NCBI GenBank assembly: GCA_964543955.1
Contig: CAZJBN010000006.1
Span: 3,949-67,948 of the forward strand
Reading direction: 5' to 3'
Origin: an uncultured Bifidobacteriaceae bacterium
Lineage (GTDB): Bacteria; Acidobacteriota; Vicinamibacteria; Vicinamibacterales; UBA2999
DNA: 64,000 nucleotides
Shown: positions 10,684-46,312 of the stretch, piece by piece
Position numbering within the stretch: position 1 is the stretch's first letter
How the letters are laid out: each line of letters begins with the position of its first letter
Position numbers and translations under genes: made by a program
Notes under the pieces: generated by a model
Seen by the model: the letters and a program-made list of their open reading frames with translations, nothing else
Database searches by the model: none
Told to the model about the DNA's origin: nothing

Positions 10684-12090
10684 TCATGCGCCGAAGAGGA
10701 TTCGCGCGATCGTGGCGGTGAGAAACGTGACGAGGAAGGCCAGGGCCAGGGGCATCAGGGCGCCGACCGCCGCCCACCTGGCACTCAGCGTCTCCTTGTA
10801 GATCGTGATGATCGTGGTCGCACAGGGGTTGTGCAGCAGGGAGAACAGCATGAGGTTGACGGCGGTCAGCAGCGTCCAGCCGTGCTGATCGACCAGGAGG
10901 ACCCTGAGCTCCTCGAACGAGGTCATGTCGGTCATGATGCCCTGCGACATGTACACCATCAGCATGGTCGGCACGACGATCTCGTTGGCCGGGATCGCAA
11001 TGATGTAGGCGAGCAGGATGACGCCGTCGAGGCCGATCGCCCACCCGAGCGGGTCGAGCGCGCCGGCAGTCCGCGCCGCCAGGCTCACGCCGCCAACCTC
11101 GATGTTGGCGAGCAGCCAGATGACCGCGCCGGCAGGCGCGGCCGTGAGAATCGCGCGCCAGAGGACGAACAACGTCCGGTCGATCAGCGACGTATAGAGA
11201 ATCCGCGTGACACCGGGCCGCCGATACGGGGGCAGCTCCAGCGTGAAGGCCGACGCCTCGCCTCGGAGGATCGTGCGCGACAGCAGCCACGACACCGCGA
11301 GCGTGAAGACCACGCCGACGAGGACGATGGCGACGACCGCCCCGGCCGCCACGAGCGAGGCGGCCGCCGGGGAGAACGACGCCGCGACGAACACCGTCGC
11401 CAGCATGATCAGCGTCGGGAACCGGCCGTTGCAGGGCACGAAGTTGTTGGTGAGGATCGCCACGAGCCGCTCGCGCGGCGAGTCGATCACGCGCGTCGCA
11501 ATCACACCGGCGGCATTGCAGCCGAAACCCATCGCCATGCTCAGCGCCTGCTTGCCGTGCGCGCCGGCCTTCTTGAAGAGGAAGTCCAGGTTGAAGGCCA
11601 CCCGCGGCAGATATCCGAGATCCTCCAGGATGGTGAACAACGGGAAGAAAATGGCCATCGGCGGCAGCATCACGCTGACGACCCAGGCCAGCCCGCGGAA
11701 GACGCCGTGCCACGTGAATCCGGTAATCCACCACGGGAGGCCAAGGGCCTCGAACGCCGCCGCACCGATGTCTTCGATGCGAAACAGGGCCGTCGCGAGC
11801 ATCTGCGACGGCACGTTCGCGCCGACGATCGTGAGCCAGAAGACGACCGCGAGAATCGCGAGCATGAGCGGGAGCCCGAACACGCGCGAGGTGACGATGC
11901 GATCGATGCGCTGGTCGAGCTCGCGTCCGTGATCCCCCGACTCGTGCACGGCCCGGTGCGTGATGCGCTCCACCTCCCCGTACAGGGACGTGACGACTTC
12001 CTCGCGGAAGCCGGCCTCGAGCGATCGGCGAAGCGCGGCGGCCTCGCGCACGATGTCGGCCGGTGCAACGACCGACGCCCGGGTGCTCAC
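10684..12090 (-). CDS. feoB: FeoB C-terminal permease part (separate gene)
   Basis: GTG 12090 (VSTRASVVAPADIV...) lies within the long ORF 10684..13257(-). The product has LDQRIDRIVTSRVFGLPLMLAILAVVFW plus many TM segments (gate-type motifs GCNAAGV and PCNGRFP). GTGA overlap with the stop of the G-domain gene. Confidence 0.85.
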   Translation of the reverse strand: MSTRASVVAPADIVREAAALRRSLEAGFREEVVTSLYGEVERITHRAVHESGDHGRELDQRIDRIVTSRVFGLPLMLAILAVVFWLTIVGANVPSQMLATALFRIEDIGAAAFEALGLPWWITGFTWHGVFRGLAWVVSVMLPPMAIFFPLFTILEDLGYLPRVAFNLDFLFKKAGAHGKQALSMAMGFGCNAAGVIATRVIDSPRERLVAILTNNFVPCNGRFPTLIMLATVFVAASFSPAAASLVAAGAVVAIVLVGVVFTLAVSWLLSRTILRGEASAFTLELPPYRRPGVTRILYTSLIDRTLFVLWRAILTAAPAGAVIWLLANIEVGGVSLAARTAGALDPLGWAIGLDGVILLAYIIAIPANEIVVPTMLMVYMSQGIMTDMTSFEELRVLLVDQHGWTLLTAVNLMLFSLLHNPCATTIITIYKETLSARWAAVGALMPLALAFLVTFLTATIARILFGA

Positions 12091-12902
12091 TGCGCGCCTT
12101 CCAGCGCGATCTTGCGGCTGAAGCGGGCGTCCGGCGCCTGCTGTCTGGCCACCAGATCGGCCAGCGCTCCGCTGGTGAGCGCCTGCTCCACGGCGGCGTC
12201 TCCATCGAGCAGCCGGATGGCAATCCATCGCGCGTTCGGCACGTCCGGCGCGACCGATTCGATCATGGGGACCAGGCGCGCGATCGCCTGCTCGAATGCC
12301 GGCGTGCCCTGTGAGCGGAGCGGCCTGGTCAGGGTCTCGCCCGATGCAATGCCCGCCACTTCGGCCAGAAGGGCCATCACGTTCTCGTTCGTGCGGGCGA
12401 CAATGGGCACCACCGGAACCCCGAGATCGCGCGCGAGGGTCCGCGTATCCACATCGATGCCGCGCCGCCTGGCCTCGTCCATCAGGTTGACGGCGACGAC
12501 GACGCGGTCGGTGATCTCCAGGACCTGCAGCACGAGATAGAGGTTCCGCTCGAGCGCGCTCGCGTCGACGACGACGACCGTGCAATCCGGCCGGCCGAAC
12601 AGCAGGAAATTCCGCGCGACTTCCTCGTCCTGCGAAGCCGACAGGAGCGAGTACGTCCCCGGCAGGTCGACCAGCTTGTAGCGAACACCCGATCGCTCGA
12701 ACCCGCCCTCGGCGCGCGTGACGGTCTTGCCGGGCCAGTTGCCCGTGTGCTGGCGGAGGCCCGTCAAGGCGTTGAAGAGCGTCGACTTGCCGGTGTTGGG
12801 GTTGCCCGCGAGCGCGACGACCCGATCGAATCCGCCAACGGCAGCGCCCAGGCTGGACATCTCCGCATGCACCGGACACGTCTCGCAGTTGTGAGCGCTC
12901 AT
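12087..12902 (-). CDS. feoB: FeoB N-terminal G-domain plus helical domain (separate gene)
   Basis: ORF 12087..12902(-) has G1 GNPNTGKST, DLPGTYSL and NLMD, then a helical domain ending in a genuine TGA at 12087-12089. ATGA overlap with the upstream gene's stop. Confidence 0.85.
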   Translation of the reverse strand: MSAHNCETCPVHAEMSSLGAAVGGFDRVVALAGNPNTGKSTLFNALTGLRQHTGNWPGKTVTRAEGGFERSGVRYKLVDLPGTYSLLSASQDEEVARNFLLFGRPDCTVVVVDASALERNLYLVLQVLEITDRVVVAVNLMDEARRRGIDVDTRTLARDLGVPVVPIVARTNENVMALLAEVAGIASGETLTRPLRSQGTPAFEQAIARLVPMIESVAPDVPNARWIAIRLLDGDAAVEQALTSGALADLVARQQAPDARFSRKIALEGAQ

Positions 12903-13987
12903 CGGCGGCTGGCCCTTCGTGGTGTGACCCCGGCCAGGCCGTCCTGACCATCAGCTGTCTCACGCGCGGCTCGGGCCGGCATCGGCAGCCGGCGCACGAG
13001 TATGCTCCGGGCCTGCTCGCGACGAAGCGCGATGGTCGTCCCGCGCAGCCGGTACCCGCACGGGTCCCCGGCAAACGTCGTGAGATCCCGGCGAATGCGT
13101 GAGCCCGGCGTGAACCCGAGGTCGAGCAGCCGCCGCCGCATGAAGCCCCGGCACGCCGAATCGATCGCGACGATCTCTGCCGTCGCGCCGGACCCGAGGT
13201 CCGACAGGCGGACCACGTCGGCAGCCCGAGCCGGATCGCCGTGGACTTCGGCGACATGCACGTTGCCCGCCAGCGCGGGTGCCAGCACGTACTCGTTCTC
13301 GCCGTCGCTCAGCACGAGCCGCGCGGCCGACCGGTCGATGATTCGCACCACCTGGCCAAGGTGCAGGCCCTCGGCCGTCAGCTGCGCATAAGCCAGCGGC
13401 GGCTCGTCCTCGAGATGGACGATTCGGCCCGGCATGGCGGGCGGCCAGCTCGGAAGGGGCGTTCCCGGCTGCGCGGACAACCGGCCATCGCCGCCGGGAA
13501 TCGGATCGCCGTGCGGATCCACGTGCGGATGGCCCATTGCCGCCGAGAGCCGGTCGACATCCGCCTCGCTCAGCCTGTGCTCGGCACGCTCCGCTTCGGA
13601 GTGCACACGCTCGAGGGGTACGCCAATCTCGTCCGCCAGGTACAGTTCCCACAACCGGTGCGCCCGCAGCACATGCAGGGCAATCCGCTCGCCATCCGGC
13701 GTCAGGCGGAACTCCGACCCGTCCGGTCGAATGAGGTGCTCGCGTTCGAGCCGTTCGACGAGTGACAGAATCTCGCGGTCGGAGAGACCGAGCGCGCCCT
13801 GAAGCGATGCCATCGAGGCGCCTCGGCCCTCGGAGGCCTGTCCTTGCAGGTGCTTGAGAGCGTTCTCAGCCTGTTCCCGCGCCAGCGCCCGCCGATATCG
13901 CTTCGCCCGCGCAATCAGCCCGTGAGTCGGGGCAAGGGCGCCGAAGGTGAGAACCAGACCGATCAGGAGCCACAGCAGCAGGTTCAC
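12899..13987 (-). CDS. N-terminal TM helix + DtxR-like (wHTH + metal/dimerisation) + two FeoA/SH3-like domains
   Basis: ORF 12899..13987(-) starts with the hydrophobic helix MNLLLWLLIGLVLTFGALAP. It continues with LRAHRLWELYLADEIGVPLERVHSEAERAEHRLS...GHPHVDPHGDPIP (DtxR dimerisation/metal domain). Two FeoA-like segments follow, the last being GATAEIVAIDSACRGFMRRRLLDLGFTPGSRI... Confidence 0.8.
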   Translation of the reverse strand: MNLLLWLLIGLVLTFGALAPTHGLIARAKRYRRALAREQAENALKHLQGQASEGRGASMASLQGALGLSDREILSLVERLEREHLIRPDGSEFRLTPDGERIALHVLRAHRLWELYLADEIGVPLERVHSEAERAEHRLSEADVDRLSAAMGHPHVDPHGDPIPGGDGRLSAQPGTPLPSWPPAMPGRIVHLEDEPPLAYAQLTAEGLHLGQVVRIIDRSAARLVLSDGENEYVLAPALAGNVHVAEVHGDPARAADVVRLSDLGSGATAEIVAIDSACRGFMRRRLLDLGFTPGSRIRRDLTTFAGDPCGYRLRGTTIALRREQARSILVRRLPMPARAARETADGQDGLAGVTPRRASRR

Positions 13988-13992
13988 GACAG

Positions 13993-14014
13993 TGATTTTG
14001 ATTAACCAAAATCA
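13993..14014. promoter_or_regulatory. candidate metal-regulator operator: 22-bp near-perfect palindrome TGATTTTGATT/AACCAAAATCA
   Basis: 10 of 11 positions are self-complementary. It is AT-rich within a GC-rich genome and sits 6 nt upstream of the feo-operon start (13987) and 67 nt upstream of the divergent dtxR-family gene (14081). Confidence 0.5.
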
Positions 14015-14080
14015 AAACACGTCTGTCGACTAAAAGTCAACTCCGCCCGTCTGAACCTCTGGTAAGCTTCTGAGAATACG

Positions 14081-14770
14081 ATGCTTCCGTCGAGCACCGT
14101 CGAGAACTACCTGAAGGCGATCTTCATGGGCGAGACCCAGCTCCCGGAAGGGCAGCCGCTCATGCCCATGGGCCAGCTCGCCTCGGCGCTGGGCGTCGCG
14201 CCCGGCACGGCCACCACCATGGTCAAGGCGCTTGCCGAGGCCGGCCTGGCCATCTACGAGCCGTACGTCGGAGTGCGCCTGAGCCCGGCCGGCGAGAAGC
14301 TCGCCGCCCTCGTGCTCCGGCGACACCGCCTCATCGAGCTCTTCCTGGTGCAGGTCATGGGCCTCAGGTGGGACGAGGTCCACGACGATGCCGAGCAGCT
14401 CGAGCACGTCGTCTCGGATCGCCTCATCGAACGGATCGACGCGATGCTGGGTCATCCGGAGGCGGACCCTCACGGCGACCCGATCCCCACGGCGGACGGG
14501 CAGCTGCCGAGGAAGGAACTGGATTCCCTCCTGACGTGCGGTCTGGGGCAGCCCGTCATCGTCACGCGCGTGACGGATCAGGATGCGGCGTTCCTCCGCT
14601 TCATCGCGGATAACCACCTCAAACCCGGCGAAACGATCGAGGTCGAGGCGCGCGACGATGTGTCGGACAGCGTGCGCCTGAAAGGCCGGAACGGTCAGCG
14701 CATCACGATCGGCATGCGCGCGGCGTCCAAGGTGATGGTGTCGATGACCAACGGCAAGTCGCGCGGCTGA
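14081..14770 (+). CDS. DtxR/IdeR/MntR-family metal-dependent transcriptional regulator
   Basis: ORF 14081..14770(+) has ENYLKAIF, RRHRLIELFLVQVMGLRWDEVHDDAEQLEHVVS, GHPEADPHGDPIP, and a C-terminal SH3/FeoA-like domain. Confidence 0.9.
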   Translation: MLPSSTVENYLKAIFMGETQLPEGQPLMPMGQLASALGVAPGTATTMVKALAEAGLAIYEPYVGVRLSPAGEKLAALVLRRHRLIELFLVQVMGLRWDEVHDDAEQLEHVVSDRLIERIDAMLGHPEADPHGDPIPTADGQLPRKELDSLLTCGLGQPVIVTRVTDQDAAFLRFIADNHLKPGETIEVEARDDVSDSVRLKGRNGQRITIGMRAASKVMVSMTNGKSRG

Positions 14771-15369: not shown

Positions 15370-15440
15370 GTACTGAGAACGCGGCCGCCGCCATGGTCGA
15401 ACAACGCGCGGGACCAGCGGTCAGGAGAGAATACTCGCAC

Positions 15441-16145
15441 ATGGCGGATCGAACCACGCTGGTGCTGCTCTCGGGCGGGCTCGACAGTGCCGTCCTCGTC
15501 GCCCACGAAGCGGAACGGGGCCGCGTGACGCCGATCTACGTGAGTGTCGGCCTGGCGTGGGAGCCGCTCGAGCTGGCGATGCTCGATCGGCTCCTTGCCG
15601 AACCCGTGTTCGCCGGTCGTGTCGCGCCGCTGTCGCAGGTGGCGTTCACGATGCGCGACGTCTATCCGCCGACGCACTGGGCGATTCGCGGCGAGCCGCC
15701 TGCGTACGACACGCCGGACGAGGACGTGTACCTCACCGGCAGGAACCTCGTGCTGCTCTCCAAGGCGGGCGTCGTGGCGGCCGGGCATGGGATTCATCGG
15801 GTCGCGCTCGGCCCGCTCTCCGGCAACCCCTTTCCCGACGCGCGTCCCGCATTCTTCGCCGCCATGCAGGCAGCGCTCTCCCTTGGCCTCGACCACGGAA
15901 TCGAGATCGTCACGCCGTTCATCGACTGGGACAAGGCGGCCGTCATCAGGCGCGGCGTCGAGATCGGCGTTCCGCTGGAGCTGACGCTCTCCTGCATGAG
16001 TCCTGTGGACGGCAGACTGCCGCGGCACTGCGGCCTCTGCAGCAAGTGCCGGGAGCGACGGGATGCGTTCGCCGAGGCGCGTGTCGACGACCCCACGGAG
16101 TACGTGCGATCGTCGCCTCGCGAGAAGGGAGCGCGCCCGCGCTGA
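15441..16145 (+). CDS. QueC-like PP-loop ATPase (divergent 7-cyano-7-deazaguanine synthase family)
   Basis: ATG 15441 lies within ORF 15393..16145(+), with AGGAGAG 12 nt upstream. It has the PP-loop LLSGGLDSAV and a C-terminal Zn-cluster pattern SCMSP...HCGLCSKCRERR. The usual DYGQRH segment is replaced by YVSVGLAWEPLE. Confidence 0.65.
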   Translation: MADRTTLVLLSGGLDSAVLVAHEAERGRVTPIYVSVGLAWEPLELAMLDRLLAEPVFAGRVAPLSQVAFTMRDVYPPTHWAIRGEPPAYDTPDEDVYLTGRNLVLLSKAGVVAAGHGIHRVALGPLSGNPFPDARPAFFAAMQAALSLGLDHGIEIVTPFIDWDKAAVIRRGVEIGVPLELTLSCMSPVDGRLPRHCGLCSKCRERRDAFAEARVDDPTEYVRSSPREKGARPR

Positions 16146-19670: not shown

Positions 19671-21023
19671 GTGGATGATATGACCGTCGCCGCACGGCGG
19701 GCCGGCGCGGGTCGGACCGAAGCCGATGTGGAAGCCCGGTTCAAGGCGCTCGTCCAGTCGCCGCTGCGCGCGGGCATCCTGCGCTTCCTGAGCGCCCGCC
19801 CGAACGAGTCGTTCGACATCGAGTCCCTGATGCAGACGTTCGGCCGCATGCGGCTGGACGTGGACAACTGCGTGCGCGAACTGGTCGAGTTCGGGGTCGC
19901 CCGCCGATCGGGGGCGAGTCCACACACGTACGGGGCGGCGCGGCCGGAGGGCGCGGCCGGCCACCTGCTCGACGCCTTCCTGGAGCGCCGCGCGCACATC
20001 GGTGTCGAGGAGTCTTCGCCGTCCGTCCAGCGCTTCCGCGAGATGATCGGGCGCGACGAGAAGATGCTCGCCATCTTCGAGTGGATTCGCACGGCGGCCA
20101 AGTCGGATATCTCGGTGCTCATCCTCGGCCCCACCGGCTCGGGCAAGGAAGTCGTGGCGCGGATGATCCACGAGCTGTCCCGCCGGGGCCAGGAGCGGTT
20201 TCAGGCCGTCAACTGCGCGGCTCTTCCCGATACGCTCTTCGAGTCCGAGATCTTCGGCTACGAGAAGGGCGCCTTCACCGGAGCGCACGACCGCAAGCCC
20301 GGACGCCTCGAAATGGCCAACGGCGGCACGCTGTTCCTGGACGAAGTCGGCGACCTCTCGCTCGTGGCACAGGCCAAGCTGCTTCGGGTGCTCGAGGAGC
20401 GGCGATTCGAACGTCTCGGCGGCAACCGGTCCATCTCCGTGGACTTCCGCCTGATCTCGGCGACGAACCGGCCCCTCGACATGTTCGTGCGCGAGAGCCG
20501 CTTCCGCGAAGACCTGTACTACCGGATCAACGCGTTCGCCATCCGCCTGCCCTCCCTGCGGGAGCGGGCCACCGATATTCCCGTCCTCGCAGGCCGCTTC
20601 CTCGCCCGCTACTGCGCGGGCAACGGCCTGCCGCTCGACGCCAAGCAGTTCTCTCCAGAAGCCGCCGACGAGCTCGTTCGCTACCACTGGCCCGGCAACA
20701 TCCGCGAGCTCGAAAGCACGGTCTCTCGCGCCGCGCTCTCGGCACCCGGCCGCGTGATTCGCGCCGCCGACATCGAGTTCCTGCACGGATCGGCCGCCCC
20801 GCGCGCCGACGAACCGTCGGGCAATCGCCTGCCGTCGCTGAGGGACGCCGAACGCGCGCACATCATCCGCGTCCTCGACGCCGCGCGATGGAACAAGCTC
20901 GAGGCCGCGCGCATCCTCGATATCAGCCGCGGCACGCTCTATCGAAAGATCGAGGAGTACGGTCTCGAACCCGGGCCTGGAATGGGAAAGCGAAGAGCCA
21001 GGCGGGAAAGCGTCGAAGCATGA
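19671..21023 (+). CDS. sigma-54-dependent transcriptional activator (bEBP) with non-receiver N-terminal domain
   Basis: ORF 19671..21023(+) has Walker A GPTGSGKE, GAFTGA (EKGAFTGAH), WPGNIRELE, and a C-terminal Fis-type HTH LEAARILDISRGTLYRKI. Confidence 0.9.
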   Translation: MDDMTVAARRAGAGRTEADVEARFKALVQSPLRAGILRFLSARPNESFDIESLMQTFGRMRLDVDNCVRELVEFGVARRSGASPHTYGAARPEGAAGHLLDAFLERRAHIGVEESSPSVQRFREMIGRDEKMLAIFEWIRTAAKSDISVLILGPTGSGKEVVARMIHELSRRGQERFQAVNCAALPDTLFESEIFGYEKGAFTGAHDRKPGRLEMANGGTLFLDEVGDLSLVAQAKLLRVLEERRFERLGGNRSISVDFRLISATNRPLDMFVRESRFREDLYYRINAFAIRLPSLRERATDIPVLAGRFLARYCAGNGLPLDAKQFSPEAADELVRYHWPGNIRELESTVSRAALSAPGRVIRAADIEFLHGSAAPRADEPSGNRLPSLRDAERAHIIRVLDAARWNKLEAARILDISRGTLYRKIEEYGLEPGPGMGKRRARRESVEA

Positions 21024-37508: not shown

Positions 37509-38120
37509 TCAGAGTACGCGCGAATAGTGCTCGACGATCAAGCGCATCTCGACGTCGAACGGCACGAACGCCTCATCCGGGTAGGAGACGACGCGGACCG
37601 TCTGCTCGGACCGATTGATGTCGAGCCATGGCGATTCCAGCCCTGAACCCGATTCGTAGGCGCGCTCGACCGCTGCCCGGCCTGATGGTTTCACCCCGAC
37701 CACGTCGTTGAGGTCGAGCCGCCTGGACGGGATGTCGCAGGTGCGGCCGTTCACGGTGATGTGGCCGTGCGCGACGAGCTGCCGCGCCGCGGGAATCGTG
37801 CGGGCGAACCCGCTCCGGAAGACCACGTTGTCGAGCCGCCGTTCGAGCAACTGAATGAGCGTCACCCCTGTGTTCCCGCGCATCCTGGTGGCGCGTTCGA
37901 CGAGGCCGCGCAGCGCGCGTTCGGTCAGTCCGTAGTTGAATCGGATCTTCTGCTTCTCGCGAAGCGCAAGCGCATACGACGAGGCCTTCTTCCTGCGCTG
38001 GGTCGGGCCGTGCTGGCCAGGGCCGTACGGACGCTTCTGGGCCGACTTTCTCGTCAGACCGGGCAGCTCGGTGCCGAGCGCCCGAACAATTCGCAATCGC
38101 GGGGACGTCAACCGTGACAC
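37509..38120 (-). CDS. rpsD: 30S ribosomal protein S4
   Basis: ORF 37509..38120(-) with a GTG start. It has REKQKIRFNYGLTERALRGL, LLERRLDNVVFRSGFARTIPAARQLVAHGHITVNG (S4 domain). Confidence 0.95.
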   Translation of the reverse strand: MSRLTSPRLRIVRALGTELPGLTRKSAQKRPYGPGQHGPTQRRKKASSYALALREKQKIRFNYGLTERALRGLVERATRMRGNTGVTLIQLLERRLDNVVFRSGFARTIPAARQLVAHGHITVNGRTCDIPSRRLDLNDVVGVKPSGRAAVERAYESGSGLESPWLDINRSEQTVRVVSYPDEAFVPFDVEMRLIVEHYSRVL

Positions 38121-40218: not shown

Positions 40219-40989
40219 ATGAGAATTGATCTCAATTCTGATGTCGGCGAGTCGTTTGGTCCCTGGCTCATGGGCGAGGACGCATCCCTGATGCCCAGCA
40301 TCACGTCCGCCAGCGTCGCCTGCGGATTCCACGCCGGCGACCCCGGCGTCATGCGGGAGACGATCGCCCTCGCCAGGCACGCGGGCGTCGCGGTCGGGGC
40401 GCATCCCGGGTTTGCGGATCTGGTCGGCTTCGGCCGGCGCGAGATGACGTGCACGCCCCAGGAGGTCGAGGACCTGGTCGTCTATCAGGTGGCCGCGCTG
40501 GCCGGGGTCGCCGCTCGACAGGGGGTGCGCCTGCAACACGTCAAGGCACACGGGGCTCTGTACAACATGGCGTGCCGCCATCGGGCGCTGGCCGACGCCA
40601 TCGCCCGGGCCGTTGCGGCAGTGGACCGGCGACTGATCCTCTTCGGGCTCCCGGGTTCCGAGTTGCTGAAGGCAGGCGCCAGCGCCGGGCTCCGCGCGGC
40701 CGCCGAGGTCTTTGCAGACCGCGCGTACCAGCCGGATGGCTCTCTCGTGCCGAGAACCGTGTCCGGAAGCGTGATTCACGACGAGTCCATCGTCGTCAGG
40801 CGCGCAATCGGGATGGCCCGCGGCGGCGGCGTCGCCGCTCTCGACGGGACGCCGATCGCGCTCGAGGCGGACACGATCTGCGTCCACGGCGACACGCCCG
40901 GCGCGGCGAGCCTGGCCGCGGCGATTCGACGGGCGCTCGAGCAAGAGGGGATCCACGTGCTCCCGCTGGCCGCGGAGCGAACCACGTGA
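40219..40989 (+). CDS. pxpA: 5-oxoprolinase subunit A (LamB/YcsF family)
   Basis: ORF 40219..40989(+) has MRIDLNSDVGESFG, ACGFHAGDP and HVKAHGALYN. Confidence 0.85.
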   Translation: MRIDLNSDVGESFGPWLMGEDASLMPSITSASVACGFHAGDPGVMRETIALARHAGVAVGAHPGFADLVGFGRREMTCTPQEVEDLVVYQVAALAGVAARQGVRLQHVKAHGALYNMACRHRALADAIARAVAAVDRRLILFGLPGSELLKAGASAGLRAAAEVFADRAYQPDGSLVPRTVSGSVIHDESIVVRRAIGMARGGGVAALDGTPIALEADTICVHGDTPGAASLAAAIRRALEQEGIHVLPLAAERTT

Positions 40990-42029
40990 ACACCACCGGC
41001 GTCGTCGTCGCACAGGTCGGAACCCCCGACGCGCCAACGCCCTCGGCCGTGCGACGTTACCTCGCGCGGTTCCTGTCCGATCCGCGCGTCGTGGACTACT
41101 CGCCCCTGTGGTGGCAGCCGATCCTGCGCGGGGGCATTCTGCCGCTGCGCGGCCGGCGTTCCGCGGCCCTGTACCGCCGCATCTGGACCGACGAGGGATC
41201 GCCGCTCCTCGTACACTCGCAGCGACAATGTGCGGCGCTGGCAGCCCGCCTCGGCGAGGGGTACCGCGTCGCGCTCGGCATGGCGTACGCCGGCCCGAGC
41301 TTCGAGGCTGCGGTCGGCGGGTTGGTCGCCTCGGGCATCGAGCGCATCGTGGTTCTGCCGATGTTTCCGCAGTACTCGTCGACGACGACCGCCTCGATCT
41401 ACGACGGGGTGAACGAGGCCGCGACCGGGCGCGCGGGCCTCGTTCAGAACGGTCTCCGCAGGTTCGTGCCCACAATCCAGTACGTTCCGCCGTTCTTCGA
41501 GCACCCGTCGTACATCTCCGCGGTGGCTGCGTGCATCCGCCGTGCGACCGCGGCCAGGCCGGAGTCGCCGGACAGGATCGTGCTCACGTTTCACGGGTTG
41601 CCCAGGCGCTACATCGAGACCGGCGATCCATACCTGTCCCACTGCGAAGCCACGGTGGAACGCCTCGCGGCCGAGATGGGCTGGCGGGCGGAGGACTACA
41701 CGGTCTGCTTTCAGTCGCGATTCGGTCCCGAGGCGTGGCTCGCCCCGGCCACGGCCGACGTCCTCGCGCGCCTGCCGTCACAAGGCGTCAAGCGCCCGCT
41801 GGTCGTCGCGCCCGGGTTCACGACCGACTGTCTCGAAACGCTCGACGAGCTCGGCAACGAAGGGCGGCATCAGTTTGCAGCCGGCGGCGGCGACCCCGAG
41901 GCCTACTCGCTCTGCCCGTGTCTCAACGACCTCGAGGAGTGGGTCGATGCCATGGCCAGACTCGTCAGGGAAGCGGATCGGCCTGCGAACGGAGGAGACG
42001 CCGCTCGCCGCTCGCAAGCAGAAATGTAA
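40986..42029 (+). CDS. hemH: ferrochelatase
   Basis: GTG 40986 (GTGA overlap with the pxpA stop) lies within ORF 40449..42029(+). The product has GVVVAQVGTPDAPT, VVLPMFPQYSSTTT, LTFHGLPRRY and APGFTTDCLETLDEL. Confidence 0.9.
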   Translation: MNTTGVVVAQVGTPDAPTPSAVRRYLARFLSDPRVVDYSPLWWQPILRGGILPLRGRRSAALYRRIWTDEGSPLLVHSQRQCAALAARLGEGYRVALGMAYAGPSFEAAVGGLVASGIERIVVLPMFPQYSSTTTASIYDGVNEAATGRAGLVQNGLRRFVPTIQYVPPFFEHPSYISAVAACIRRATAARPESPDRIVLTFHGLPRRYIETGDPYLSHCEATVERLAAEMGWRAEDYTVCFQSRFGPEAWLAPATADVLARLPSQGVKRPLVVAPGFTTDCLETLDELGNEGRHQFAAGGGDPEAYSLCPCLNDLEEWVDAMARLVREADRPANGGDAARRSQAEM

Positions 42030-42204
42030 TCCGCGTCACGAGCCTGTCGAGTGCGAGGCCCGGTCCTTCAATCAACCGAGAGAATTTCGGCCAGATCGGC
42101 AACGGCACGAACCTTGTTTATGTGGACCGCGTCGCCAGTTTGTTATCTGTGGCACTGTGCTGCAGATGCTGGGGGGAGCCAAGCTGGCGGCAATTCTCCG
42201 AGGA

Positions 42205-42238
42205 GGGCAGTCCGTGCGCGGCACGGGCTGCCCTTTTC
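42205..42238 (+). terminator. rho-independent terminator-like hairpin after hemH
   Basis: GGGCAG-t-CCGTGC-GCG-GCACGG-g-CTGCCC at 42205-42233 is followed by TTTTC. There is no T-tract on the opposite strand. Confidence 0.6.
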
Positions 42239-42255
42239 ACTTTCGTGGTGTGCGA

Positions 42256-43386
42256 TCAGATCGCGCCTTCCGGGTACTGCAGGGCGAGGCGCAGCTCCTT
42301 GGCGAGTCCATCGACCGTCGTGCCCTGGCGCTTCCACGCGCCGTCGGTCTCGAAGCGCAAAGACCCGATGCGGCGGCCCCACGGCGAGATCACACGGCCA
42401 ATCGCCCGCGAATCCGATCGGTCGGCGTGCTGCTGGTCGATCTTCTGGATGACATCCGGCGCGACGCGAATGAACGCGCGCAGGGCGGCCGCGGACTTGA
42501 CGCTGTATTTGCGGCCGTTCCACGCCGGCTCGAAGATGTTGGCGATCTGCTTGAAGTAGTTGACGAAGAACCGCTTGGCGTCCTCGCGGAAGTCGTCGGC
42601 CTTGCGCGCGCCGCCAAGCGCCTCGTCATCGGCGAAGAGCTTCTTGAGCTCCTGCGCGAGCGGCGCCTGCGCGACCCGGCCCCTGCCAACGCCGAGCAGC
42701 TTGATGTCCCCGTGCAGTGGCGATTCCTCGCGGTCGTTCAACGCGCGGACCACGTCGTGCGCCGCCGCGAGCGCCTCGTCGCGGTAGAGCTGGCGGCCGG
42801 AGAGCGTGACCAGGTGCGAGGCGTTCAGGCGCGTGTGCTTCGCATTGATCGTCACGAACATCTGGACGATGTGATCCTCCGGAAGCCGGTCGAAGATGAT
42901 TGCCGGCACCGTGAACGGCTCGTCGCCAAAGCGGTCGATGTCGGCATGGAGCGCCAACAGCCGATGCTGACCGTCGATGGCACGCAGGATGCCTTCGCGC
43001 TCCGGCACACGGAGCCTGCCAACCATACTGCCGGGTTCCACCGGATCGAACGTCAGCTTCTCGTCCGCGGAGATGATGACGGCGCCGGGAATCGAAGGAA
43101 GGTCTCGCGCCTGCCGGCACTGCTCGTAGTACTGGACGAGCTCTTCGATCTTCTTGCGGATGATCTGCCGTTGATAGGCCTTCTCGCTCGACGCGATCCG
43201 GCGTTCGAGCAGGTCCCAGTTGATCTTCGATTGCGGGGCCCTCTTGCCCCCGCGCACGCCGCCCGACTGGTCCATGTAGCTCAGCACCTCGAAGCGCACG
43301 AGCTTGTCGATGTCGTTGGCCGTGAGGGAGGCCTGATAGAATTGCACGCCGAACTGCTGCATTCGAATCGCGGCCACACTGATCAT
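42256..43386 (-). CDS. DGQHR-domain protein (DndB/DpdB-like, ParB/Srx-fold) with uncharacterised C-terminal half
   Basis: ORF 42256..43437(-) carries the literal motif RAIDGQHRLLAL (DGQHR codons 42961-42975), an upstream YQRQIIRKKI (QR motif) and a downstream FVTINAKHTRLN. Start tentatively at ATG 43386 (MISVAAIRMQQFGVQFYQASL). Confidence 0.8.
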   Translation of the reverse strand: MISVAAIRMQQFGVQFYQASLTANDIDKLVRFEVLSYMDQSGGVRGGKRAPQSKINWDLLERRIASSEKAYQRQIIRKKIEELVQYYEQCRQARDLPSIPGAVIISADEKLTFDPVEPGSMVGRLRVPEREGILRAIDGQHRLLALHADIDRFGDEPFTVPAIIFDRLPEDHIVQMFVTINAKHTRLNASHLVTLSGRQLYRDEALAAAHDVVRALNDREESPLHGDIKLLGVGRGRVAQAPLAQELKKLFADDEALGGARKADDFREDAKRFFVNYFKQIANIFEPAWNGRKYSVKSAAALRAFIRVAPDVIQKIDQQHADRSDSRAIGRVISPWGRRIGSLRFETDGAWKRQGTTVDGLAKELRLALQYPEGAI

Positions 43387-43489
43387 AGGATTCTGCCCAA
43401 AGCGTTGGATTCTACCGTTGTGCGCCCCGCTCGCCAACGGTTTTTGGCCTGTTTACCCTATCTCTTTGACTGACGAGGAGTTACCGCAA

Positions 43490-46312
43490 ATGGAGCGTAT
43501 CTTACCTCGGAGGCTCCGCCGTCGGCTGCCCCTGACGATCCTGGTCCTGGTCCTGTTGGGAGCTGCACCGGGCGCCGAGCAAGCTCAGCCGGCCGCCGGG
43601 GCCGGCCGGACGGCAGCCACCCAGCCGACCGACCCGGACTTTGCGGCGTTCGTGAAGAAGGCGACGACCAAGCCCGAATTCCTGTCCCCGCTGGTCGAAC
43701 AACTGCCCGTCAAAACGGGCGTCCCGACGCCGAAGGACATCCTCGGCTATCACATCGGGACGGAGAAGAAGCTCACCTACACGGCAGACCAGTTCCGGTT
43801 CTTCCGTACGCTCGAGAAGGCGCTCCCGGGGCGCGTCAAGACCTTCAACATCGGCACGACCGAAGAAGGCCGCGAAATCGTCGTGGCGTTCATCAGCTCC
43901 GAGGCCAACATCAAGAACCTCGAAGTCAACCGGCAGAACCTCAAGCGCCTGGCCGACCCGCGTGGCTTGTCCGACACCGAAGCCCAGCGGATCATCAACG
44001 CCACCAGGCCGCACTACCACATCACGGCGGGGCTCCACAGCGCAGAGACGAATCCTCCCGAGAGCGTCATGGAGCTCGGCTATCGACTCGCGGTCAGCGA
44101 GGAACCTTACATCCAGCAGATCCGCGACAACGTCATCGTCAGCATCACGCCGAGCACGGATGTCGACGGCCGCGACCGGTACGTGGACTGGTACTACGCG
44201 TACAAGATCGACGAGGCCTACGATGGAGGGGAGAACTACGGCGGCCCGCCCTACTGGGGCAAGTACGTCTTCCACGACAACAACCGCGACATCAACTACG
44301 GCGTGGACTCACTGCGCGCTCACCTGAACTGGTATCTCGACTGGGTGCCGCCCATCTGGCATGACGTCCACGAGGCGCAGACGCTGCTCTACACCTTCAG
44401 CGGCCAGCCCCCGCAGAATGCCAACCTCGATCCCATGCTCTACACCGAGTTGCCCTTCTTCGCAACCTACGAGGTCAACAAGCTGACCAACTACGGCATG
44501 CCGGGCGTGTGGCATTTCGGGTTCGTGGACATGTGGTCGCCCGGCTATCTCGGCTTCTCGGCGGCCAACCACAACGGGATGCTCCGGATGTACGAAGTCT
44601 TCAACCAGGGCGGTGCCAACACGAAGAAGGCCCGGCTGCAGGGCAATCAGACGACGCGCCAGTGGTACCGGCCCAACCCGGCGCCGGTCGGCGAAGTCGA
44701 CTGGTCGATTCGCAATTCCATCAACTACGCCGAGACGGGCCTCCTCACGGCCCTCGAACTGACGTCGAAGTTCCCGGCCATGGTCGTGGACAACTTCTAT
44801 CGGAAGTCGCTGAACGGGGTGAACGCCGGCGCCGACAAGGCGCCGCACGCTTTCGTCATTCCCGCCGGGCAGCGCGACCAGACACAGGTGGATCGCGTCG
44901 TCAACCTGCTGAGGCGACAGGGCATCGAGGTGCACCAGGCGACCGGGGAGGTCACAGTCGGCGACGACACCATCGCGGCGGGTTCGTATGTCATCAAGCT
45001 CAACCAGCCGTACGGCAGGCTGGCCAAGACGCTGCTCGAAAAGCAGACGTACCCGGATCCCTCGCTGACGACGTACGACGACAGCGCCTGGACAATGCCC
45101 CTCGCCAACAACATCGACGTGAAGACGATCGGCGACAGGGCAATCCTGGAGGCATCCGGAACGCTCCTGACAGCGGACGTCGTGACGGCGGGAGCCGTTT
45201 CGGGCACGGGCCCGGTTCTCGCCGTCAAGCACAACGGCTCGCTCAACCTCATCACGCTGCGCTACCGCCTGAAGGACGTGGCGATCAAGGGTGCGAAGGC
45301 CTCGTTCACCGCCAACGGCACGGACTTCCCCGCTGGCTCGTTCGTCCTTCCAGACTCGGAACGCGCCCGCAAGGAAATCCAGGCCCTTGGCCTGCAGGCC
45401 GCCGCCCTGCCGTCAGCGCCCGATCTCGAATCGACCGACGTGGACCTGCCGCGCATCGCGATGTACACGACCTGGGCGAACACGGAGAAGGTGGGCTGGG
45501 TGCGCCTGGCGTTCGATCGCTTCGAGGTCCCGTTCGATCTGATCCACAAGGACCACGTGCAGGCCGGCGCCAACCTGCGCGGCAAGTACGACGTGATCCT
45601 CGTCCCGCACCAGACACAGAATGGGAAGTCGGTCGTGTTCGAACAGCCGAAGCTGTCGAAGCCGCTGGCATACAAGAAGAACGACACGTTCAAGACGATG
45701 GGCATGTATGCCGAGACCGACGACGTGCGCGGCGGAATGGGTCTCGAAGGCGTCAACGAGTTCCAGAAGTTCCTGGATGCGGGCGGGCTCCTGATGACGT
45801 TCGGCGTGGCGAGCTACTTCCCCGCCGAGTTCGGCCTGGCTCGGGGCGTAGACGCGCAGCGGCCGGCAAGCGGCTGGTACGCACCAGGGCCGTACGTGCA
45901 GGCGGAGATCCTGCAGCCGACGCATCCGCTCTTCTACGGCTACGGCGGGCAGAAGACGCTACCGGTTCGCTGGGCTGGTGGACCGCTGCTCCAGGCCGGG
46001 CCACCGGCGCAGTTTGCCGCCATGGCGGGCTCGACACCGAACCCGCCACGGGTGCTCGCGCGCTACCAGGGCGGTGACGCCGGTGTCCTGAGCGGTCTGC
46101 TCCGCGGTGCTGACCAGCTCCGCAACCGGCCCATGATCGTGGACGCGCCTTCGGGCAAGGGCCGGGTCATCTTCTTCGCCAACAACCCTATCTACCGGTG
46201 GCAGACCTTTGGCGAGCACCAGCTGGTCTTCAATACGCTGCTCTTCTGGAACGACCTGCCGGACGTGTTGCCCAAGCCCGCAACGGCGACGCCGACAGCG
46301 TCGCCGCAATAA
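43490..46312 (+). CDS. secreted M14-family zinc carboxypeptidase-like protein (large, about 940 aa)
   Basis: ATG 43490 lies within ORF 43418..46312(+), with GAGGAG 10 nt upstream. It has a signal-like N-terminus (RRRLPLTILVLVLLGAAPGAEQ) and HITAGLHSAETNPPE (HxxE zinc motif). Confidence 0.7.
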   Translation: MERILPRRLRRRLPLTILVLVLLGAAPGAEQAQPAAGAGRTAATQPTDPDFAAFVKKATTKPEFLSPLVEQLPVKTGVPTPKDILGYHIGTEKKLTYTADQFRFFRTLEKALPGRVKTFNIGTTEEGREIVVAFISSEANIKNLEVNRQNLKRLADPRGLSDTEAQRIINATRPHYHITAGLHSAETNPPESVMELGYRLAVSEEPYIQQIRDNVIVSITPSTDVDGRDRYVDWYYAYKIDEAYDGGENYGGPPYWGKYVFHDNNRDINYGVDSLRAHLNWYLDWVPPIWHDVHEAQTLLYTFSGQPPQNANLDPMLYTELPFFATYEVNKLTNYGMPGVWHFGFVDMWSPGYLGFSAANHNGMLRMYEVFNQGGANTKKARLQGNQTTRQWYRPNPAPVGEVDWSIRNSINYAETGLLTALELTSKFPAMVVDNFYRKSLNGVNAGADKAPHAFVIPAGQRDQTQVDRVVNLLRRQGIEVHQATGEVTVGDDTIAAGSYVIKLNQPYGRLAKTLLEKQTYPDPSLTTYDDSAWTMPLANNIDVKTIGDRAILEASGTLLTADVVTAGAVSGTGPVLAVKHNGSLNLITLRYRLKDVAIKGAKASFTANGTDFPAGSFVLPDSERARKEIQALGLQAAALPSAPDLESTDVDLPRIAMYTTWANTEKVGWVRLAFDRFEVPFDLIHKDHVQAGANLRGKYDVILVPHQTQNGKSVVFEQPKLSKPLAYKKNDTFKTMGMYAETDDVRGGMGLEGVNEFQKFLDAGGLLMTFGVASYFPAEFGLARGVDAQRPASGWYAPGPYVQAEILQPTHPLFYGYGGQKTLPVRWAGGPLLQAGPPAQFAAMAGSTPNPPRVLARYQGGDAGVLSGLLRGADQLRNRPMIVDAPSGKGRVIFFANNPIYRWQTFGEHQLVFNTLLFWNDLPDVLPKPATATPTASPQ

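Follow-up and report, generated by a model that had tools for sequence, protein, structure and literature searches.

An old, solitary and strongly constrained DGQHR-type gene of Vicinamibacterales

Results

A DGQHR-type gene lies between hemH and a peptidase gene

The window analysed here is a 64 kb stretch of the bacterial contig CAZJBN010000006.1, with a GC content of 68.4%. On its minus strand, between the ferrochelatase gene hemH and a gene for an M14 peptidase, lies a gene whose 376-residue product carries the signature pentapeptide DGQHR (the DGQHR gene). A first-pass annotation, made from the letters alone, had described it as a solitary relative of dndB and dpdB that was probably inserted at this position. 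We found that the gene stands alone as described, and that in Vicinamibacterales (Acidobacteriota) it is a chromosomal gene of long standing, passed on vertically and under strong constraint. The gene and the elements of its product are:

42256-43386, minus strand: coding sequence of the DGQHR gene, 376 amino acids, ATG start at 43384-43386 (open reading frame call; TIGR03187 and PF14072 matches)
42961-42975, minus strand: codons of D138-G-Q-H-R142, the family signature pentapeptide, invariant in 41 family members down to about 32% identity
43168-43173, minus strand: codons of Q72-R73, the QR motif of the DGQHR domain, within YQRQIIRKKI, invariant in both family alignments
42823-42858, minus strand: codons of FVTINAKHTRLN (residues 177-188), which holds the FxxxN motif (read from the sequence)
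42256-42786, minus strand: basic helical C-terminal half, residues 201-376 (homology to the DpdB C-terminal domain; predicted helices)

The reading frame, the DGQHR codons, YQRQIIRKKI and FVTINAKHTRLN had all been pointed out in the first-pass annotation, and each was confirmed in the sequence. A longer mechanical open reading frame (ORF) opens at TTG 43437, and this TTG is the start of the predicted -35 hexamer of the gene. Because the upstream TTG belongs to the -35 box and the protein begins with MISVAAIRMQQFGV in all orthologs, we take ATG 43384-43386 to be the true start. The QR motif follows the published definition for the DGQHR domain (PMC4619093). By analogy with DpdB and SspE (PMC10164549), the DGQHR pentapeptide is taken to be the phosphate-binding motif of a ParB/Srx-type nucleoside triphosphate (NTP) pocket.

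Next, we compared the protein with family profiles. It matches the DGQHR domain model TIGR03187 with 128.8 bits against a cutoff of 58.85 (residues 6-312) and the Pfam family DndB (PF14072) with 55.8 bits against a gathering threshold of 29.1, the latter match covering only profile positions 2-246 of 338. PF14072 was the only Pfam family found in the full-length protein, and databases already title these proteins "DGQHR domain-containing protein". The scores on the more specific models were lower. The DpdB equivalog NF041060 gave 54.1 bits, far under its cutoff of 300, and TIGR04172 (dnd-associated DGQHR protein 1), which served as the equivalog test for a dnd-linked protein, gave 44.3 bits, far under its cutoff of 450. 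In PADLOC, the DpdB profile (PDLC02811) matched residues 66-352 with 54.7 bits (E = 1.8e-15) and the DndB model scored 25 bits. When the family profile was aligned with canonical plasmid DpdB by hhalign, residues 3-325 fell on DpdB 5-300 with a probability of 98.6% and 26% identity. As judged from these profiles, the gene product is a genuine DGQHR-family member of the DndB/DpdB branch of the ParB/Srx superfamily, which bears out the family assignment of the first-pass annotation. The ParB/Srx fold of its N-terminal domain is assigned from family membership and the literature. AlphaFold models reached a mean predicted local distance difference test score (pLDDT) of 79.5 at full length, and a predicted template modelling score of 0.72 with a pLDDT of 75.6 for residues 1-205.

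The C-terminal half had been described as free of recognised motifs. This holds in that residues 201-376, searched alone against Pfam, had no match even at E <= 10, and in that we found no HNH, PD-(D/E)xK, DUF1524 or HEPN signature in this half. It is not, however, foreign to the family: since the TIGR03187 match reaches residue 312, the hhalign alignment with DpdB residue 325 and the PADLOC DpdB match residue 352, the C-terminal half is the usual helical domain of the family and not an add-on. The region is basic, with an isoelectric point (pI) of about 9.9 for residues 176-376.

At the junction of the two domains, residues F177, I180, N181, T185 and S190 are invariant in the 41-member family alignment, and R186 and H191 are kept in at least 90% of it. 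The subfamily thus has a conserved T185-R186-x-N188-x-S190-H191 segment directly after FxxxN (42823-42843 for residues 182-188, plus H191), in which R and H stand in Rx4H spacing. By alignment, these TRLNxSH residues, R186 and H191 included, are absent from canonical DpdB. Residues 181-200 have a pLDDT below 50, and confidence there is low in both AlphaFold models. The T185-H191 segment may form a loop that depends on a ligand or on DNA, or it may be a catalytic element not yet recognised. We also considered, and rejected, an Rx4-6H site of the HEPN type within the C-terminal domain: none is conserved, and the sole conserved Rx4H (R186-H191) sits at the domain junction, in a non-canonical position.

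The gene is solitary in the window and in its relatives

Pfam searches confirmed both neighbours. The convergent gene hemH matches Ferrochelatase (PF00762) with 324 bits, and the divergent M14 gene (43490-46312, plus strand, 940 amino acids) matches the M14 model with 48 bits. Within the peptidase only residues 104-232 match this model and the remaining 700 or so residues have no assignment; its gene has a clear GAGGAG Shine-Dalgarno sequence, unlike the DGQHR gene. The wider surroundings consist of genes for OTCase, DUF2339, a CbiX-like protein, a PKHD hydroxylase fragment, LamB/PxpA, hemH, M14, DUF4112, a Trans_reg_C regulator and an M24 peptidase.

A PADLOC scan of the 53 ORFs of the window gave no Dnd, Dpd, helicase or nuclease partner. 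When canonical DpdA was used as a tblastn query, neither the window nor the 184 fetched loci (1.78 Mb in total) gave a match. We then extended the comparison to related loci, taken as the best 80 of at least 513 species-representative genomes that encode a relative, and to four distant lineages: Pyrinomonas methylaliphatogenes, a contig with a protein 76% identical to a subgroup annotated as Candidatus Binatia, and two metagenome contigs. No Dnd or Dpd partner lay within 8 kb on either side in the 80 relatives, nor within 7 kb on either side in the four distant lineages, and the four distant family members (30-47% identity) likewise stand alone among housekeeping genes. No conserved neighbour pointing to a pathway was found in either set. 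As no partner was present in the window, in the 80 related genomes or beside the distant members, the solitary state is a property of the family. The first-pass annotation had thus read the context correctly.

Two other genes of the window were matched by PADLOC. One encodes a sigma-54-dependent activator (19671-21023, plus strand) that matches RtcR/PspF-type models (E = 2.6e-103); this is generic similarity among AAA+ enhancer-binding proteins and not evidence of a defence system. The other, 27 kb from the DGQHR gene, encodes a divergent QueC-like PP-loop protein of 250 amino acids (15393-16145, plus strand) with an SGGLDS motif, a match to the C-terminal half of the QueC model only and weak similarity to QatC. 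It sits between genes for a HAD phosphatase and a LiaG-like protein, with no TGT or DpdA nearby.

The gene is resident and co-diverges with its neighbours

The lower GC content of the 5' third of the gene and of both flanks had been taken as a sign of acquisition. The dip itself was confirmed, with a total GC of 0.59-0.63 in these parts against 0.684 for the window. The inference drawn from it was not: GC at third codon positions (GC3) is 0.86, 0.89 and 0.89 in the three successive thirds of the gene, and in codon usage the gene comes 48th when the 53 window genes are ordered by rising typicality, among the most host-like. As GC3 is still 0.86 in the 5' third, the lower total GC is due to the first and second codon positions and to normal intergenic DNA.

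The neighbourhood was then examined in the 80 best relatives, whose proteins are 82-95% identical to that of the window. LamB/PxpA is convergent downstream of the DGQHR gene in 69 of the 80 loci, with a gap of 60-540 nucleotides in most. Upstream, the M14 gene is present in 43 loci, and in other cases the next genes of the same block are found instead (DUF4112, a hypothetical gene, the regulator, M24 and OsmC). The neighbour that differs is the following one:

40992-42029, plus strand: hemH (ferrochelatase), an extra gene between LamB/PxpA and the DGQHR gene

In none of the 80 relatives is hemH adjacent to the DGQHR gene, and it is therefore the locus-specific newcomer; in the relatives the terminator and then the DGQHR gene come immediately after LamB. 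A hemH homolog (61% identity) was found in one related locus only (L042), 3.6 kb away. In the window hemH starts 2 nucleotides past the stop codon of LamB/PxpA (the pair spans 40219-42029, plus strand) and has host-like codon usage; LamB/PxpA and hemH look operon-coupled.

Divergence of the gene also followed that of its surroundings. Identity of the DGQHR protein to the window copy correlates with the identity of each neighbour (rho 0.68-0.86), and its synonymous divergence (dS) among the closest relatives, 0.76-0.91, is similar to that of the neighbours (0.62-1.5). The ratio of nonsynonymous to synonymous divergence (dN/dS) is about 0.04 for close pairs with a median of 0.10, compared with 0.16-0.22 for LamB, M14, M24 and OTCase. 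The DGQHR protein outranks every neighbour in conservation at every locus, with a median identity of 86% against 48-77%. Searches of viral and plasmid sequences turned up no close relative, with the best at 24% identity among viruses and 25% among plasmids.

Most of the 80 loci are labelled Vicinamibacterales or Acidobacteriota, and the remaining titles look like mislabelled metagenome-assembled genomes (MAGs). At the 90% level, more than 120 clusters are 84-100% identical to the window protein. Source names place the wider family in Nitrospiraceae, Myxococcota, Deltaproteobacteria and Acidoferrales MAGs, and also in Binatia and other Acidobacteriota; the relatives outside Vicinamibacterales are colinear, about 370 amino acids long and just as solitary. 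Taken together, host-like composition, conserved synteny, neighbour-like dS and co-varying identity do not support insertion or recent acquisition, and hemH is the odd element of the locus. The first-pass annotation had itself named, as telling against an insertion, a gene present at this position in relatives and host-like in composition, and this is essentially what we observed in 80 orthologs at 82-95% identity with a conserved neighbourhood. It is thus very probable that we are dealing with a resident orphan DGQHR gene and not with an island.

A predicted promoter travels with the gene

A predicted promoter lies in the 103 nucleotides that separate the DGQHR gene from the M14 gene, and a predicted terminator lies past the stop codon. 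These elements are:

43409-43437, minus strand: predicted sigma-70-type promoter of the DGQHR gene, -35 TTGGCG at 43432-43437, 17-nucleotide spacer, -10 TAGAAT at 43409-43414, preceded by an A-tract
43387-43408, minus strand: short 5' leader, with the -10 box 22 nucleotides before the ATG, no strong Shine-Dalgarno sequence, and the first GGATTCT at 43388-43394
42205-42238, plus strand: GC-rich hairpin followed by a T-run, predicted terminator, 18 nucleotides past the stop codon of the DGQHR gene (terminator scan)

The promoter matches 9 of 12 consensus positions, and 0.1 such sites are expected in shuffled sequence. Most orthologs are preceded by a conserved arrangement of an A-tract, TTGAGC, about 17 nucleotides and TAGAAT, TAAAAT or TACAAT, irrespective of the gene that lies on that side. 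The -10 box begins 27-29 nucleotides before the ATG in most orthologs and 19 before it in five. In the window, transcription is predicted to start about 7 nucleotides after 43409. On this sequence evidence, the predicted near-consensus promoter travels with the DGQHR gene.

The first-pass annotation had also drawn attention to a GGATTCT direct repeat in this spacer. The repeat is real, but its second copy lies at 43407-43413, not at 43409-43415, and overlaps the -10 hexamer. The first copy (43388-43394) borders on the ATG, and its conservation is limited to the closest relatives. We rejected GGATTCT as a binding site on these grounds and because the heptamer is not enriched in the window (7 occurrences against 5.1 expected). 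Short arms such as TCYG...CRGA occur in some orthologs and are inconsistent across groups, and no operator is claimed from them.

The hairpin at 42205-42238 is likewise real, although it is not particular to hemH, to which it had been assigned. The hairpin GGGCAGCCCGTG...CACGG.CTGCCC, with an A-run on the DGQHR strand, recurs in several closer relatives that lack hemH, and it therefore terminates whichever gene is convergent, hemH here and LamB in the relatives. The spacer to LamB was also found to carry variable heptanucleotide tandem repeats, within 80 nucleotides past the DGQHR stop codon, in loci L008, L010, L012, L014, L015, L013, L043, L033 and L027; examples are (AAGTGAG)n, (GCCTTCT)n, (GACAAAA)n and (CGGTGGC/T)n, and such repeats are absent from the window.

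Other features of the window

Two further loci are described here in their own right. At 12087-14770, the match of a 271-amino-acid protein to FeoB is confined to the N-terminal GTPase part (positions 1-201 of the 594 in the profile), and two genes for MntR/DtxR-type regulators adjoin it (12899-13987, minus strand; 14081-14770, plus strand). The locus may hold a split or truncated feoB, or it may be an unusual site of metal regulation. A gene for a ribosomal protein S4-like product (37509-38120, minus strand) lies outside a ribosomal operon and adjoins the CbiX-like gene, which encodes a signal peptide. This gene, possibly an rpsD paralog, has a counterpart in locus L007 that is only 75% identical, and the DGQHR protein there is 94% identical.

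Discussion

The results above show that a DGQHR-type gene is kept as a solitary, slowly evolving chromosomal gene throughout the relatives compared here. The best overall reading, to which we give a probability of roughly 55%, is that it encodes a domesticated stand-alone NTPase of the ParB/Srx type, which binds DNA and has a housekeeping or regulatory role. Among the three functions suggested in the first-pass annotation (a single-gene defence module, a regulator of a distant cluster and a domesticated ParB-like protein), the last fits best.

A mechanism can be proposed from the characterised relatives. DpdB is a homodimeric ATPase that is stimulated by DNA and has been modelled with its C-terminal domains encircling DNA, and its DNA-stimulated ATPase activity is needed for preQ0 insertion (PMC10164549). 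DndB is a homodimeric, ATP-modulated autorepressor that acts on its own promoter (PMC4507180; also Xia 2019, as described in a paper citing it), and a DndB-like protein binds both ATP and GTP (bioRxiv 10.1101/2025.10.10.680097). By homology with these proteins, the DGQHR protein would act as a homodimer. Its N-terminal domain would bind and hydrolyse a nucleoside triphosphate by means of the invariant QR and DGQHR residues, and its basic helical C-terminal domain would hold DNA, so that the two domains together would form an NTP-gated DNA-binding switch or clamp. Expression would be driven by the gene's own near-consensus promoter, and the role would be housekeeping or regulatory, for example in chromosome-associated regulation, rather than in phage defence. 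We put forward this NTP-gated DNA-binding dimer with a housekeeping or regulatory task tentatively, at slightly less than even odds. A more far-reaching version, in which the protein is a core, constitutively expressed chromosomal factor that works as an NTP-gated DNA clamp or global regulator without any modification or restriction partner, is conceivable and somewhat doubtful.

Several observations weigh against a resident, stand-alone DNA-binding factor. Identity drops from at least 82% within Vicinamibacterales to 30-54% outside, which could reflect an ancient transfer into the ancestor of the order. A reverse test with LamB as bait on 80 metagenome loci does not bear on how universal the gene is: the DGQHR gene was present in only 2 of 41 informative loci, but the others lack M14, DUF4112, M24 and OsmC, and are thus non-syntenic lineages and not empty sites. 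DpdB and DndB both work with partner genes, so a distant partner is possible. Foldseek searches of the full-length and N-terminal models against the PDB gave nothing significant: the matches to BrxU (rank 5, probability 0.18) and to the pNOB8 ParB-N domain (rank 39) were of very low probability. Searches of PDB sequences with the single protein and with the family profile returned chance-level matches only. Finally, no convincing dyad operator or leader hairpin was found in the promoter and leader across orthologs.

The protein may alternatively be a displaced B component of a modification system located elsewhere in the genome, that is, an ATPase that aids a DpdA/TGT-like transglycosylase or a regulator of a dnd cluster. 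DpdB and DndB are indeed its closest characterised relatives, and the mechanism does not demand physical linkage, since DpdA and DpdB work together although they form no stable complex (PMC10164549). The equivalog scores argue against such a component (DpdB 54 against 300; DGQHR_dnd_1 44 against 450), as do the motif itself, which is DGQHR here and DGQQR in DpdB, and the missing partners in the 64 kb, within 8 kb on either side in the 80 relatives and within 7 kb in the four distant lineages. The divergent QueC-like PP-loop gene at 15393-16145 could be counted in its favour, and we considered it as a Dpd-type partner; it was rejected since its product, at 77 bits, stays under the QueC cutoff of 150 and since it lies 27 kb away among unrelated genes. 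The dnd systems are patchily distributed, and the same is assumed for dpd. For dnd, dndBCD was found in 568 of 31,478 genomes, and lateral dissemination has been noted in the literature. The DGQHR gene instead strictly co-diverges in a vertical manner, with a dN/dS below that of its housekeeping neighbours. A displaced component is thus unlikely, and a regulator of a distant cluster, as proposed in the first-pass annotation, fits poorly with how patchily dnd and dpd systems are spread.

Equally unlikely, in our view, is an enzyme of the ParB/Srx fold that acts on a substrate other than DNA, either in sulfiredoxin-like ATP-dependent protein repair or as a kinase or hydrolase of small molecules or nucleotides, with the likeness to DndB and DpdB reflecting no more than a shared NTP-binding fold. 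Homology to DpdB extends past the NTP-binding domain into the basic helical C-terminal domain (pI 9.9), which is modelled around DNA in DpdB, and there is no conserved neighbour that hints at a pathway. What speaks for such an enzyme is that the superfamily includes sulfiredoxin and other non-DNA enzymes, that the gene lies among metabolic and stress genes (OsmC, peptidases, LamB/PxpA and hemH) and that its very strong conservation is typical of core enzymes.

Least probable is a single-gene defence or abortive-infection module, built on a ParB/Srx-type enzyme that, on sensing foreign DNA, would either degrade DNA or deplete nucleotides. DGQHR and DUF262 domains are indeed frequent in defence systems, members of the ParB superfamily may act as nucleases or as effectors that degrade NTPs, and the protein is matched by the PADLOC DpdB and DndB models and weakly by GmrSD_N (E = 0.008), but it shows no HNH, PD-(D/E)xK, DUF1524 or HEPN signature and no Pfam match in its C-terminal half, its gene lies outside any defence island and has no close phage or plasmid relatives, and its slow evolution (dN/dS about 0.04-0.10) and stable synteny over at least 80 species are the opposite of what is usual for defence genes.

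To our knowledge, work on DGQHR proteins has dealt with them only as accessories to DNA modification and restriction, as the DndB repressor and the DpdB ATPase. Here the same architecture is found as an orphan, slowly evolving and vertically inherited gene in abundant, poorly cultured soil bacteria. In at least 80 species, an orphan DndB/DpdB-type protein behaves in a core-like way and evolves more slowly than any of its neighbours. Such behaviour suggests that a module known only in the context of modification and restriction also serves a housekeeping purpose. If it is a domesticated chromosomal factor, the DGQHR fold would have a housekeeping role that predates its use in Dnd and Dpd systems or runs parallel to it. 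For annotation, the consequence is that the DGQHR locus should not be treated as a genomic island, and that caution is due before solitary matches to DGQHR, DndB or DpdB models in defence finders are called defence. The gene also offers a partner-free case in which to ask what the DGQHR NTPase module does alone.

Comparison with known systems

The effectors GmrSD, BrxU, SspE and DndI (DUF262/GmrSD_N-type NTPases) belong to the same ParB/Srx-like superfamily and share the DGQ(Q/H)R motif, and some DGQHR-family members carry the PF03235 annotation. These proteins have a C-terminal HNH or DUF1524 nuclease and act as restriction or phosphorothioate-sensing effectors, whereas the DGQHR protein has no nuclease domain or motif.

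Orphan ParB-fold proteins are already known to be widespread (bioRxiv 10.1101/2025.10.10.680097), and like the DGQHR gene they are stand-alone chromosomal genes outside parAB operons. That survey centres on ParB homologs proper, and the DGQHR subfamily of about 370 amino acids, its spread and its conservation are not described there.

DpdB (NF041060, PDLC02811) is closest in build. The two proteins share their length class (375 and 376 amino acids), a colinear two-domain architecture, the QR, DGQ(H/Q)R and FxxxN-type motifs and a C-terminal helical domain without a nuclease motif. They differ in context. In the plasmid locus used as a control, dpdB directly follows and overlaps dpdA, and dpdD, K, J and H come next, whereas no dpdA, dpdC or dpdD-K adjoins the DGQHR gene and no DpdA was found in any locus examined; DpdB is borne on islands, and the DGQHR gene is vertically inherited and core-like.

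DndB shares the DGQHR signature and a PF14072 match above threshold. It differs in its surroundings, as no dndCDE lies near the DGQHR gene among the 53 window ORFs and the neighbours in the 80 relatives and the four distant lineages are housekeeping genes. In Salmonella, DndB binds palindromic TACG-N10-CGTA boxes of its own promoter; no such box was seen in the promoter and leader of the DGQHR gene, and operator sequences need not be conserved between subfamilies. In function, DndB offers the most economical analogy for a stand-alone copy with its own conserved promoter.

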